A stretch of 64,000 bases of DNA from an uncultured delta proteobacterium (GTDB lineage Bacteria; Desulfobacterota; Binatia; UBA9968). Of this stretch, positions 52,618-59,124 are shown piece by piece. The notes beneath the pieces are model-generated. The model was not told the DNA's origin. It did not search any database and saw nothing but the letters and a program-made list of their open reading frames with translations. The translations under genes and the position numbers were made by a program. The stretch spans positions 288,001 through 352,000 of the forward strand of contig CAVYTU010000013.1 of NCBI GenBank assembly GCA_963771465.1. Reading direction: 5' to 3'. Each line of letters opens with the position of its first letter. Position 1 is the stretch's first letter.

Positions 52618-52995
52618 CTATCCGTCAGCGCCGCATGTGAGATAGCGCCATCGCATGGGAAGAATTTCGCGTGTAAGTGGGTTGAGCATGAAGCCGAGGG
52701 TTTCGAGCGTGACCGCGCCGAGCAATGCGCCGTCGTTTTTGTCGCCGAGCACAACCGGAGATGTGGCCGACTCGCCACGAATCTCGAACCAACACTCGGA
52801 AACGCCGCGTGTGATGGCCGTGCCATCCGCCAAAGTGAATTCGACCTGGCGCTGCGGTTTGAGCCGCAGCGCCCGCCAGATTTTCTCGGGCACTACGGAG
52901 TAGATCGCGCCCGAGTCGACGAGAAACCGCACGTCTCGTGAAGGACCTCGACCGGCAGACTTGCGAAGTCGCGCATGCACATAGGTAAGACCCAT
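52618..52995 (-). CDS. small clan AA (retropepsin-like) aspartyl protease
   Basis: FLVDSGAIYSVV, FTLADG, LLGAVTLETLG; the last few codons may be frameshifted. Confidence 0.82.
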   Translation of the reverse strand: MGLTYVHARLRKSAGRGPSRDVRFLVDSGAIYSVVPEKIWRALRLKPQRQVEFTLADGTAITRGVSECWFEIRGESATSPVVLGDKNDGALLGAVTLETLGFMLNPLTREILPMRWRYLTCGADG

Positions 52996-55753: not shown

Positions 55754-56515
55754 TTGCCGGGTATTCAAGGACTGGTCGGCGGCAGTTTTCATTTTAGCCA
55801 AATCCTCGGCCAAGGCGCCGGCGCGATCCTGCGCGGTTTGCCGCTAAAGATTTCAATGGTCTTCGACACCCGCCCGCTCAACTGGCTTTACGCCAGTAAG
55901 AACATCAAAACGATTCAAGAACTCAGAGGCGGCAAACAGGTCGCGGTGTCAAGCTTCGGCGCAGCGCTCGATCAAATGACCCGCGAGTTGCTCGCGAAAC
56001 ACGGCGTCGATCCCCAGCGCGATGTAGTCCTACGCGCTATCGAACCGACGCCCAATCGGCTCGCCGCATTGCTGACCGGCGTCGTCGACGCCAGCGTGCT
56101 CAATCAGCTCGACCGTTTGATCGCCAAGAAGAATGGCTTCAACGAGCTGCTCTTTTACGGCGACGATCTGGAGTTCGTTACCGCCGGCATCGTCGTGGCG
56201 GAAAAAACGCTGACGCAAAACCCGGAAATGGTGCGTCGCTTTGTGCGCGGCACCTTGCGCGGTTTTCACTGGCTCAAGTCGAGCGTGGCGCGCTTTGCGG
56301 CGGCGATGAAGGTCAGCGAAAGCGAAGCCACCGATGTTTACAAGGCTGCTCTCCGGGTCATGTCCACGGACGGCACAATAGCGGCCGGCCTGCAGGAAAA
56401 AATGATCGCCCTCCAGCGCCGCTCGCTCAAGGTCGAGCGCGACGTCCTACCCGAGCAAGTCTATGACTTCACGATTGTCCGTGCCATCAATGATGAATTA
56501 CGCAAAAATCGCTGA
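55754..56515 (+). pseudogene. N-terminally truncated NMT1/SsuA-like substrate-binding protein
   Basis: Starts mid-domain (GIQGLVGGSFHF, IKTIQELRGG, RLAALLTGVVDA); no signal peptide, and no room for one before the divergent gene at 55631. Confidence 0.6.
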
Positions 56516-56609: not shown

Positions 56610-56638
56610 TTGACTTGACACCGGGCATCACCGATACT
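56610..56638 (+). promoter_or_regulatory. candidate sigma70 promoter for the amidase/actin operon
   Basis: TTGACT-N17-GATACT ending 37 bp upstream of the amidase start. Confidence 0.35.
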
Positions 56639-56675: not shown

Positions 56676-57683
56676 ATGGCGACGGTCGACGAAACCAAGT
56701 CTCGGCTCCTGCGTGGAGTGGTGCAGGATAATATCGATGTGCTGCAAAACGTTAAGGCGCGGCGCCTTAACCGGCGCAAGCGATCTGTCCATCCGTGGAT
56801 TCTCGCTGGCTTGCTGTTGGCGCTAGGCGCCTACGTAATTCAACCCGCATTGCTAGTTTCCACTGCGCCGACGCCCGCTGGCAGCTCCGTCGCGTTGGCA
56901 ACCAGCGCCGTAACGCCGACCGACATCGACCTGACCCCGGAATTGTCCGCGCCGCTGACTAATCCTCGGCCCATCGACCGCGCAGCGATACCGCTCGCGA
57001 TCAAGCGAATCGTCATCGATCCGGGCCACGGCGGCGAGCCCGGCGCAATGTCCGAGTCCGGCGTCGCGGAAAAGGAAATTACTCTGGACGTGGCGCTGCG
57101 GTTGCGCCGTTTGATGGCCCATGATCCCTATGAAGTCCTGCTCACGCGCGAAACCGACCGTCTGATGTCCCTCGACAAGCGCGTCAACTTCGCCAACCAG
57201 CGCAAGGCCGATCTGTTCGTGTCAATCCATGCAAATTGGATGGAGCCGAAAACCATCCGCGCCTTGGAAACTTACTACATCGGACCCACCGACGATCCGG
57301 CGACATTGAAGTTGGCGAGCATGGAAAATAAGGGCTCCGGCTATTCGCTGTCGGATTACAAACAAATTCTTGAGAAAATTTATGTCGATGCCAGACACGA
57401 CGAGTCGCGCGCGCTGGCGAAATCAATTCAGACTAAGCTTTTTCGCTCGCTCAAACTGGTCAATCCCGTGCTCGAGAACCGCGGCGTCAAAACCGCGCCG
57501 TTCGTCGTACTGATCGGCACACAGATGCCCGCTATTTTGGTGGAGATCGCCTGCTTATCCAATGAGGATGAGGTTAAGTTGTTGACAAAAGAGGATTATC
57601 GCGAAAATATCGCCCTGGCTTTGGTGCAGGGCATCCGCAGCTACGCGGCGAGCCTCAATGCACCTAACAGGAAAGGCAGTTAA
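56676..57683 (+). CDS. membrane-anchored N-acetylmuramoyl-L-alanine amidase (Amidase_3)
   Basis: Zn/catalytic motifs IDPGHGG, EKEITL, FVSIHAN, ILVEIACLSN; about 40-aa N-terminus ending in a basic patch, then one TM helix (WILAGLLLALGAYVI) and a Pro/Thr linker. Confidence 0.93.
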   Translation: MATVDETKSRLLRGVVQDNIDVLQNVKARRLNRRKRSVHPWILAGLLLALGAYVIQPALLVSTAPTPAGSSVALATSAVTPTDIDLTPELSAPLTNPRPIDRAAIPLAIKRIVIDPGHGGEPGAMSESGVAEKEITLDVALRLRRLMAHDPYEVLLTRETDRLMSLDKRVNFANQRKADLFVSIHANWMEPKTIRALETYYIGPTDDPATLKLASMENKGSGYSLSDYKQILEKIYVDARHDESRALAKSIQTKLFRSLKLVNPVLENRGVKTAPFVVLIGTQMPAILVEIACLSNEDEVKLLTKEDYRENIALALVQGIRSYAASLNAPNRKGS

Positions 57684-57686
57684 CTC

Positions 57687-58718
57687 ATGGAAGAAACCAA
57701 TGAAACCCTCTGTGTCGGCATCGATCTCGGCACTTCGCGCAGTTCTATTTCCGCATCCAATGGTCAGCGTCACGTCGTCGACAGCTACGTCGGCTGGCCG
57801 GTGGACATGGTGGCGCGCAAGCTGGTCAAAAAAACCGTCCTGGTCGGCCGCGATGCGCTCGACAACCGGTCGATGCTCGACCTGCGCCGGCCGCTTGAGC
57901 GCGGCGTGATGAAAGAAGGTTCGGAAAAAGATCAAGAAGCGGTGCAAGAAATTCTCCGTCATCTGATCGATGTCGCCGGTATCAAACAGAAGGGCAAGGG
58001 TAAAACCAAAGTGCGCGCCGTGGTGGGTGTGCCGGCCGAAGCGTTCCGCGTCAGCCGGCAAAACTTGCGCAACACCATGGAAGGCATCGCCGACAGTGTG
58101 ATGTTGGTTTCCGAACCCTTCGCCGTGGCGTATGGGCTAGAGGCGCTGCTGCACGCGCTGGTGATCGATATCGGCGCCGGCACCGCCGATTTTTGCGTCA
58201 TGCAGGGCCGCTATCCGACCGAAGAGGATCAACGGACGCTGCCCAATGCCGGTGATTCCATTGACGAACAGCTAACAAAACTCATTTCGGAGCGACATCC
58301 GGAAGCGCAGTTTTCGATCCACATGATTCGCGAGTGGAAGGAACGGTGGAGCTTTGTCGGCGAGCCTAAAAGCCGCGTCGTGGTCAGCGCGCCGGTGAAG
58401 GGGAAGCCGACCGAACTCGACATCACCGACGAGATGCGTACCGCCTGCGAGAGCATATTGTCGCCGGTTTGCGAAACTGCCGTGGATTTGCTTTCCAAGG
58501 TCGAACCGGAGTTCCAGGACAAGGTGCGGAACAACATCATACTTGCCGGTGGCACGTCGCTGATTTCGGGCTTTGCCGAGGTGATCCAGAAATCGCTTAT
58601 GGAATTCGGCGGCGGCCGCGCCGTGGTGGTCAAAGATCCTGTGTTCGCCGGCTCTGACGGCAGTCTCGCCATCGCGCGCGATGCGTCGAGCGCAGATTGG
58701 GAGAAACTCTCACTATAA
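57687..58718 (+). CDS. MamK-like bacterial actin
   Basis: GIDLGTS, VGWPVD, RSMLDLRRPL.RG, AVVGVPA, VSEPFAVAYGL, IDIGAGTADFC, P..EDQ.TL..AG, ERHPE, KE.WSFVG, GKP..DIT, NIILAGG, VKDPVF; these match magnetosome MamK as I recall it better than MreB. Confidence 0.88.
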   Translation: MEETNETLCVGIDLGTSRSSISASNGQRHVVDSYVGWPVDMVARKLVKKTVLVGRDALDNRSMLDLRRPLERGVMKEGSEKDQEAVQEILRHLIDVAGIKQKGKGKTKVRAVVGVPAEAFRVSRQNLRNTMEGIADSVMLVSEPFAVAYGLEALLHALVIDIGAGTADFCVMQGRYPTEEDQRTLPNAGDSIDEQLTKLISERHPEAQFSIHMIREWKERWSFVGEPKSRVVVSAPVKGKPTELDITDEMRTACESILSPVCETAVDLLSKVEPEFQDKVRNNIILAGGTSLISGFAEVIQKSLMEFGGGRAVVVKDPVFAGSDGSLAIARDASSADWEKLSL

Positions 58719-58815
58719 TTCGTCGTCGCCGTGGGATCACTCGAACTGCAATTGCGGCAACTCGACGCGCCGATGAATTGGGGCGCTTGAATCATCGAGA
58801 ACCGACGCAGTCACT

Positions 58816-59124
58816 ATGGAAGAATTGATTCCCGATCTGGTCATTTTCATTGCTGGCACCGCCGTGGGGATGCTAATTGCATTAATCGTTCCCGGTCTCT
58901 CCGCCACCGAGAAGAAAACCAGCGAGCTAGTTGCCGCGCGCCGGCGCATGCTTGCCGATATCAAAGAGAAACACCACGAGGAGATTCTCGATCAAGCATT
59001 TCGCACCACCGAAGCGATCCGTGGCGAGCTCGACAAGTCAGTGACCACCTTGCGCAAAACTTTGGATGCCGTGCTGCCGTCCGGTTCAGATCATCCGAGC
59101 GGGCAGAGGAAACCCGCTGGTTAA
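58816..59124 (+). CDS. small single-TM coiled-coil protein (YhcB/ZapG-like architecture)
   Basis: N-terminal TM LVIFIAGTAVGMLIALIV followed by a helical, charged segment. Confidence 0.6.
   Translation: MEELIPDLVIFIAGTAVGMLIALIVPGLSATEKKTSELVAARRRMLADIKEKHHEEILDQAFRTTEAIRGELDKSVTTLRKTLDAVLPSGSDHPSGQRKPAG

Follow-up and report, generated by a model that had tools for sequence, protein, structure and literature searches.

The subject of this report is a pair of adjoining genes in a 64,000-nucleotide stretch of DNA from an uncultured soil delta proteobacterium of the class Binatia (assembly GCA_963771465.1, contig CAVYTU010000013.1, positions 288,001 to 352,000); "the window" hereafter means this whole stretch, and it belongs to a 6.9-Mb assembly that is 99.4% complete. 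The first gene encodes a membrane-anchored peptidoglycan amidase and the second an actin-like ATPase of the MamK family, and the same order is found in genomes of several phyla. We consider it probable, though well short of assured, that the two genes, joined in some lineages by a third, constitute a dedicated module in which the actin holds the cytoplasmic tail of the amidase and thereby sets the place where the cell wall is cut. The genes and their parts are as follows (aa, amino acids; pLDDT, predicted local distance difference test).

56676..57683, + strand: amidase gene, an open reading frame (ORF) of 335 aa; a bitopic Amidase_3 peptidoglycan amidase of the AmiA/AmiB/AmiC structural type
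56676..56789, + strand: predicted actin-binding tail of the amidase, residues 1-38; predicted to be cytoplasmic, with an AlphaFold helix and a conserved motif
56790..56852, + strand: predicted transmembrane (TM) helix of the amidase, residues 39-59; an AlphaFold helix, and in the sequence a hydrophobic run after an Arg/Lys-rich stretch
57000..57665, + strand: predicted periplasmic catalytic domain, residues 109-330; pLDDT >90 over most of 111-330
57670..57676, + strand: Shine-Dalgarno-like GGAAAGG for the actin gene, within the 3' end of the amidase gene; read from the sequence
57687..58718, + strand: actin gene, an ORF of 343 aa; a MamK-family actin-like ATPase of the amidase-linked clade
58816..59124, + strand: third gene, an ORF of 102 aa; a small bitopic protein, lineage-specific

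The TAA of the amidase gene occupies 57681-57683 and the ATG of the actin gene begins at 57687, with 3 bases between them, and the GGAAAGG run sits 11-17 nucleotides (nt) before that ATG; given its position and the narrow gap, translational coupling of the two genes is plausible. The third gene starts 97 bases past the actin stop.

A Pfam scan of the amidase returned Amidase_3 (PF01520) alone (2e-48, residues 112-321, 165.2 bits against a cut-off of 27), and neither an AMIN nor a LysM domain was found in it. Its closest sequences in the PDB are AmiB (3ne8) and AmiA (8c2o), and in fold it comes nearest to E. coli AmiA (8c2o, TMt 0.83); it stays below the cut-off of each NCBIfam equivalog model (AmiA, 106.4 against 400; AmiC, 93.5 against 700; AmiB, 91.9 against 532). 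Residues H118, E132, H185, and E290, which from the family we take to be the metal ligands and the catalytic Glu, are invariant in 33 of 33 relatives, and by this measure the amidase looks active. The AlphaFold model (pLDDT 79.8) has helices at residues 2-23 and 39-59, disorder at 25-35 and 65-88, and a confident catalytic domain from residue 109. An insert at 205-250 aligns with the regulatory-helix region of AmiA and AmiB (3ne8 alignment; conservation 0.67) and is modelled as two helices, 208-218 and 225-235, at a pLDDT of about 63-65.

For the actin, Pfam reports MreB_Mbl/Actin, and the best NCBIfam model is MamK (NF040964), with 377.6 bits just under the cut-off of 400, a mark that is passed by 3 other members of the same clade (L049, 440.7; L050, 424.2; P0125, 425.2 bits). 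The remaining models score far below their thresholds (BeeR, 218.8 against 530; MreB, 71.9 against 293 and 57.4 against 365.75), and no ParM or Alp family model is among the NCBIfam matches. The best PDB sequence match is again MamK (5ljw, 1.1e-75, residues 6-341 aligned), in which the same stretch aligns with the Glu of the VSEPF motif. This residue, E143, is invariant in 33 of 33 clade members, as are D13, G15, D161, G163, G165, G288, and G289, so that, judged from its sequence, the actin keeps intact nucleotide-binding and catalytic motifs. Its AlphaFold model (pLDDT 84.6) is closest in fold to the MamK filament protomer 5ljv_A (TM-score 0.90/0.95; root-mean-square deviation 1.7 Å; 38% identity in the structural alignment), ahead of BeeR and then MreB. 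The likeness of the model to a filament protomer hints that the actin probably polymerises. An earlier note on this DNA, drawn up from the letters alone, had already proposed a MamK-like actin with MamK-type motifs, the Glu of VSEPF among them, 3 bp downstream of an amidase that carries an N-terminal segment ahead of its TM helix in place of AMIN or LysM domains, with a third gene 97 bp further on; all of these points held up, the N-terminal segment in the AlphaFold model.

Conservation and co-inheritance of the pair

A scan of species genomes with a five-sequence alignment found 583 relatives of the actin, the best 80 of which were kept. The amidase gene lies directly 5' of the actin gene and on the same strand in 77 of these best 80, or in 77 of the 78 that are testable, the actin of 2 loci (L117 and L120) lying at a contig edge where the upstream gene cannot be assessed. 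The distance between amidase stop and actin start has a median of 3 nt, and in 68 of the 77 it is at most 10 nt or the genes overlap. By their record titles, the carriers belong to Binatia, Methylomirabilota/Rokubacteria, Acidobacteriota (Thermoanaerobaculia and Holophagales), and Syntrophobacteraceae. When the 82 loci and the window were compared, every other cluster of neighbouring genes proved to be shared by 12 of them at most, save for a cluster of antisense ORFs in 29 loci that is spurious, arising from greedy ORF picking in high-GC DNA. Because the amidase-actin order recurs in this many loci with unrelated flanks, it is not due to chance, and the adjacency whose conservation the earlier note had proposed to check thus extends over several phyla. 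An apparent amidase-actin fusion (L098, a 682-aa ORF) proved to be an artefact of two genes in different frames. At the locus L069 (2343-7993), to which we return below, the actin is followed, at a distance of about 500 nt, by a protein of 1374 aa with coiled-coil repeats.

At shorter evolutionary range, the actin is present in 21 of 24 other genomes of the same genus (20 of 23 without the unpublished G005) and in 0 of 16 genomes from other families of the order. All 22 same-genus loci carry the adjoining amidase; the downstream transport gene is syntenic too, so that adjacency within the genus says little by itself. In a sample of 401 genomes of the phylum, 17 have a match to the MamK model at E <= 1e-50, and among 20 phylum loci fetched only two, in genomes G066 (GC 33%) and G334 (GC 59%), hold an actin close to that of the window; in both, an overlapping amidase gene lies upstream and the flanks are wholly different. 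A close actin homologue occurs in 25 of 301 sampled genomes from the phylum of the acidobacterial carrier G441. The module is therefore accessory and patchily distributed. Two same-genus loci are irregular. In L028 (G007:C4, 1501-1974), the actin gene can be matched up to residue 125, where it passes into the C-terminal portion of the third gene; this looks like a deletion fusing the two genes or an assembly fault, and the upstream amidase is intact. In L027 (G018:C43, 1356-2387), actin and amidase are matched piecewise in different frames, as if frameshifted, perhaps through sequencing error.

The two genes also share their history. Pairwise identities of the actins and of the amidase catalytic domains correlate (r = 0.68 over 33 pairs), with 0 of 999 permutations reaching as high a value, and both genes are missing together from G008 (same genus, 99% complete) and from G331 (sister genus), which keep the AmiC-like paralogue (37% identity). 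The genome of the window too encodes an AmiC-like amidase elsewhere, a second Amidase_3 protein with an AMIN domain. The genome likewise has a canonical mreB (500.5 bits on PF06723) followed by mreC and mreD on another contig, so a separate mreBCD, for which the earlier note had suggested a genome-wide search, does exist; 3 other carriers examined also have a canonical MreB. With its own mreBCD and an AMIN-type amidase in the same genome, the pair is an extra system, which supplements MreB and the division amidase and does not take their place.

The pair is also present in RNA libraries. Contigs from metatranscriptome libraries of 4 studies fall on the amidase and actin genes, most of them without differences, and one also covers the third gene. 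Two contigs span the amidase-actin junction (57343-57817 and 57614-57784). Parts of the window that the libraries leave uncovered are given no weight.

The actin within the MamK family

Phylogenies were built at two levels. A quick tree of 97 rows held 37 loci, left from the 80 once they had been filtered at 80% identity, together with L049, L050, 10 other MamK-family actins of the phylum, 47 of 150 listed representatives (8 of them trimmed to the actin domain), the window actin, and the MreB of the same genome; in the quick trees, a branch with a support of 99 sets the amidase-linked actins apart from all other rows. In a careful tree of 52 rows, for which 24 long or redundant representative rows were dropped and the clade was thinned to 19 rows, the amidase-linked clade received a support of 100/100 and was recovered in all of 200 bootstrap trees. 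MreB stands on a very long branch (length of about 7) outside the MamK-family radiation, so the actin does not fall with canonical MreB, a placement that would have spoken against the earlier note. Lineages are intermixed within the tree. By their sequences, the amidase-linked actins are a distinct subfamily within the broad MamK family.

Only one probable magnetosome MamK is in the tree: L133 (G090), which sits beside a MamB-like cation diffusion facilitator and FeoB and lies outside the amidase-linked clade. The branch joining that clade to L133 has a support of just 65/40. Of the evolutionary proposal in the earlier note, the non-magnetosome setting for a member of the MamK clade is upheld, and the further suggestion of an ancestral role for MamK finds no firm footing in a branch of that support.

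Several other MamK-family actins came to light along the way. The genomes with the highest MamK scores in the phylum (G318, G260, G059, and G358) were considered as sources of true MamK references and set aside, their actins not being in magnetosome clusters. Tandem pairs of MamK-family actin genes occur in 3 of them (L131, G318:C1, 14884-17734; L132, G260:C12, 9711-12373; L135, G358:C23, 7777-9959); some of these actins score above the MamK cut-off, and nearby are Mla lipid-transport, radical-SAM, and ordinary genes and no magnetosome genes. MamK-family actins without magnetosomes seem to be common in the phylum of the window. Long proteins (700-1232 aa) that end in a MamK-like domain were rejected as amidase-linked, since they lie outside the clade and none is an amidase; among them, P0137, P0140, P0141, P0142, P0144, P0145, and others form a clade of their own, and their N-terminal regions gave no match in Pfam. 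In P0192, FtsZ and MamK are fused.

Since MamK is what the actin matches best, among named families and among solved structures alike, the locus might be the remnant of a magnetosome cluster, or its actin might serve magnetosomes encoded elsewhere in the genome. We regard this as scarcely credible. In the 99.4%-complete genome, the MamA, MamE, and MamP profiles gave only generic tetratricopeptide-repeat, protease, and PDZ matches below the cut-off (the MamB, MamM, MamO, and MamQ models were not run), so the absence of a magnetosome cluster anticipated in the earlier note is confirmed for these three; the MamI profile carries no weight, having matched in none of the genomes scanned. The clade is separate from the MamK next to MamB-like and FeoB genes, and the carriers are metagenome-assembled genomes of soil Binatia, Acidobacteriota, and Rokubacteria.

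The patchy spread within the genus, the order, and the acidobacterial phylum, together with the intermixing of lineages in the tree, points to lateral transfer, and one could imagine a mobile cassette in which a plasmid or prophage partition actin of the ParM/Alp kind and a lysis amidase were captured in a chromosome. Most of what the locus contains makes such an origin very improbable. No centromere-like iterated repeats and no adaptor gene were found by the pair, where only two-copy repeats expected by chance occur. Both flanking genes encode NMT1-type substrate-binding proteins (Pfam), in keeping with the unrelated transport genes described earlier; the transport and metabolic genes of the flanks are syntenic in the genus, and in GC content the pair does not stand out from its surroundings in the window. 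The amidase belongs to the membrane-anchored, regulated AmiA type and not to the endolysin type, and the actin is nearest to MamK, with the ParM and Alp models missing from its matches.

The amidase tail and what the pair may do

The segment of the amidase that precedes its TM helix is conserved. From 75 amidases of the loci, 59 with a complete N-terminus and the window's own sequence were aligned, and filtering at 60% identity left 33 representatives. Over the first 25 residues their consensus is M....R.KRR.LR.AV.EN....RG., with N19 invariant and K8 present in at least 90% of the representatives. Mean conservation is 0.56 over tail residues 8-28, whereas the TM segment averages 0.37 and the linker 0.35. 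The strict form of the motif occurs twice among the six-frame ORFs of the genome, the second match being internal to its ORF. A simple pattern for the motif had no match beside any of the other MamK-family actins fetched, a result that carries no weight, since the pattern also misses the divergent tails of L049 and L050. The conserved K8...N19...G25 part precedes the hydrophobic run by about 15-30 residues and surpasses it in conservation, a pattern that, on the sequence evidence, is unlike signal peptides.

Modelling of the actin alignment together with residues 1-40 of the amidase alignment, in 3 runs and with 3 controls, places the tail on the actin: each of the 3 runs gave an interface score (ipSAE) of 0.84, whereas the best control scored 0.11; at least 91% of contacts were shared between runs, and the pLDDT of the partner was at least 67. 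When the tool was calibrated, 58 of 80 solved complexes came up to the mark, as did 2 of 110 mismatched pairs; these counts apply only approximately here, where alignments of our own were used. Tail residues 4-26 meet actin residues 124-128, 139-155, 174-176, and 329-341, that is, the helix after the catalytic Glu, the loop past the second phosphate motif, and two C-terminal helices, which from the general actin fold we presume to line the cleft between subdomains IA and IIA. This cleft binds ParR in ParM and WH2 helices in actin, and it also receives the next protomer in filaments; the tail may therefore hold a filament end or a monomer, and not the side of a filament. The docking of the N-terminal 40 residues that the earlier note had proposed to model is thus predicted, and supports a contact between the amidase N-terminal helix and the actin.

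The mechanism that we favour would run as follows. The amidase would have a cytoplasmic N-terminal helix, a single TM helix, a flexible linker, and its catalytic domain in the periplasm; the actin, translated in coupling with it, would be a cytoplasmic protein whose IA/IIA cleft takes up the N-terminal helix. The tail would hold a filament end or an unpolymerised protomer, much as ParR does with ParM, and the actin would determine at which sites, and perhaps at what times, the amidase removes stem peptides from the wall. That the actin polymerises and positions the enzyme is inferred, as is the process of the cell that would be served, be it shape, budding, or division. The cytoskeleton-guided wall-remodelling module of the earlier note accordingly gains from the adjacency, the clade, and the docking model, and its function is a prediction from computation.

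A more ambitious version of this mechanism would make the pair a cytomotive machine akin to ParMRC: the tails would hold growing ends of MamK-like filaments, and insertional polymerisation or treadmilling would push the amidase in the plane of the membrane, so that stem peptides would be cut along a track, or else at some set distance from a landmark. We hold this to be doubtful, if worth keeping in view. If true, no earlier case would exist of a peptidoglycan hydrolase being transported by an actin, and the MamK lineage would have a second use, outside organelles, in a sizeable share of the uncultured phyla of soil.

The contact could also be a switch and not a scaffold, controlling the activity of the enzyme and not its place, either through filament-driven clustering that relieves auto-inhibition, or with the tail capping or sequestering protomers and so regulating polymerisation. 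The catalytic domain keeps the insert aligned with the regulatory helices of AmiA and AmiB, amidases of this kind need activation, and the modelled cleft is the site of monomer- and end-binders in other actins. A single TM helix followed by a disordered linker of about 45 residues would, however, be a poor allosteric route to the periplasm, and no gene of the activator (LytM) type is conserved beside the pair. On balance we find a switch rather doubtful.

A simpler possibility is that the two proteins never touch: the genes would be co-transcribed for one process, such as division, and the N-terminus of the amidase would be an export signal of the twin-arginine translocation (Tat) or Sec pathway, or an anchor. 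E. coli AmiA and AmiC are Tat substrates, an Arg-Arg pair lies within 15 residues of the hydrophobic run or TM helix in 20 of the 33 representatives, and the enrichment of clade-specific residues at the modelled interface is not significant. On the other hand, the strict Tat motif is found in 2 of 33 amidases and 13 of 33 have no Arg-Arg pair at all; the conserved part of the tail outdoes the hydrophobic run, the modelled complex scores far above its controls, and the genes are gained and lost together. This explanation strikes us as improbable.

Several observations weigh against a positioning module all the same. Polymerisation, binding, and amidase activity are alike inferred, the support being computational throughout. 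The complex score is the model's own confidence, part of which may owe to likeness with the solved ParM-ParR and actin-WH2 complexes. Clade-specific residues (R128, L155, A333, and D337) are weakly enriched at the interface, 4 of 20 compared with 26 of 323 (Fisher p = 0.085), and the Arg-Arg pairs near the TM helix leave some room for an export signal. At L069, a clade actin has a major facilitator superfamily gene upstream in place of the amidase, and in G007 the amidase is intact though the actin is cut to residues 1-125, so that this amidase may work alone, unless the assembly is faulty. Finally, contigs in RNA libraries can derive from carried-over DNA, and a contig that covers both genes is no proof of a single transcript.

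The surroundings of the pair are less constant. The third protein is predicted to have an N-terminal hydrophobic helix at about residues 7-27, followed by a charged, probably coiled-coil cytoplasmic part; it matched no family above the cut-off in Pfam or NCBIfam, and its Atlas scores, below 0.8, are at chance level. Homologues of its gene lie 3' of the actin gene in 20 of the 22 same-genus loci and in a few other Binatia-type loci, and not elsewhere, where the genes in this place vary by lineage (DNA ligase, NUDIX, hydrolases, and a SPOR protein); a conserved third partner of the pair was rejected on this ground. The SPOR protein, found at one Holophagales locus (1 of 14 downstream ORFs scanned), has 531 aa with the SPOR domain at its C-terminus and would suit the product of the amidase, since SPOR domains bind the denuded glycan that amidases make. 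A basic-hydrophobic stretch of the third protein, ARRRMLADIKE (similar in L059), loosely recalls the motif of the amidase tail. Scans of the region for promoters and terminators found none above chance; one weak site may be listed.

56610..56638, + strand: promoter-like site, TTGACT and GATACT separated by 17 nt; weak, 38 nt 5' of the amidase start

It matches at 9 of 12 positions, and the 2 such sites in the region, compared with 1.2 expected in shuffled sequences, are not significant by themselves. The NMT1-type gene 5' of the amidase (55754-56515; 253 aa, TTG start) matches profile positions 59-209 of 216 and may be 5'-truncated, its downstream counterpart being longer (338 aa). Further away, a 125-aa ORF on the minus strand (52618-52995), which adjoins a 128-aa ORF, contains an LVDSGA stretch that recalls retropepsin-like aspartic proteases.

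Comparison with known systems

To our knowledge, spatial restriction of wall hydrolases is established for few systems: the MreB-guided elongasomes, the FtsEX-EnvC-amidase chain, and the bactofilin-LmdC pair. If our reading is correct, they would be joined by a system in which a MamK-lineage actin, driven by ATP, takes hold of the cytoplasmic tail of a wall amidase. Partners with a short amphipathic helix in the IA/IIA cleft are familiar from ParM-ParR and actin-WH2, and the amidase tail is modelled in the same cleft (actin residues 139-155, 174-176, and 329-341); unlike in ParM-ParR, there is no centromere, DNA-binding adaptor, or plasmid here, and the helix belongs to a membrane enzyme. With AmiA, AmiB, and AmiC, the amidase shares the catalytic fold and the insert that aligns with the regulatory region, and like LytH of LytH-ActH it appears to be anchored by an N-terminal TM helix. 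What sets it apart from AmiA/B/C with EnvC or NlpD, from LytH-ActH, and from CwlD-GerS (8c2o, 8c0j, 4bin, 7tj4, and 7rag for this whole group) is the conserved, putatively cytoplasmic tail with a predicted actin partner, and the lack of an AMIN domain.

On the actin side, MamK (5ljw, 5ljv, and 5jyg; NF040964) is the closest characterised protein, with the same catalytic Glu and phosphate motifs, but the amidase-linked actins form a separate clade, and their likely partner is a wall amidase rather than magnetosome adaptors of the MamJ/Mca type. Two MamK-related actins from non-magnetotactic hosts have been described in the parts of the sources available to us: saltatorellin, which forms filaments in E. 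coli and Magnetospirillum (10.1101/817700), and BeeR, which polymerises with ATP (PMC11929497). Unlike for the actin of the pair, an amidase is mentioned 0 times in either of these texts, as far as they were accessible, and among the literature searched (supplements and subscription journals lay outside the search) no paper was found that links a MamK-type actin to an amidase. Should the present interpretation hold, MamK-type actins would not be a magnetosome speciality, which matters wherever magnetotactic bacteria are identified by mamK as a marker. The carriers, moreover, belong to abundant and almost unstudied soil lineages (Binatia, Acidobacteriota, and Rokubacteria).

The best functional analogue, by comparison of arrangement and not by family membership, is BacA-LmdC of Hyphomonas neptunium and Rhodospirillum rubrum. 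According to the accessible part of that study, LmdC is a bitopic M23 endopeptidase encoded beside the bactofilin gene, and BacA binds its cytoplasmic tail directly (peptide 1-38, dissociation constant of about 15 uM) and recruits the enzyme (PMC10945521). In both cases, so far as that text describes its own, the gene for a polymer-forming protein (here, one that probably polymerises) adjoins the gene for a bitopic hydrolase with a conserved, here predicted, cytoplasmic tail, one TM helix, and a catalytic domain in the periplasm. The differences lie in the polymer, a presumably ATP-dependent MamK-family actin here and a nucleotide-independent bactofilin there; in the enzyme, an Amidase_3 amidase instead of an M23 endopeptidase; and in the tail, a predicted helix instead of a beta-hairpin, with binding that in our case is modelled. 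Collectively, the recurring pair points to a means, so far undescribed, by which the cutting of the wall may be steered from within the cell: wall hydrolases guided by a cytoskeleton are a kind already known, whereas the pairing of a MamK-type actin with an amidase appears to be new, and the module itself is, at the level of sequence, well supported.

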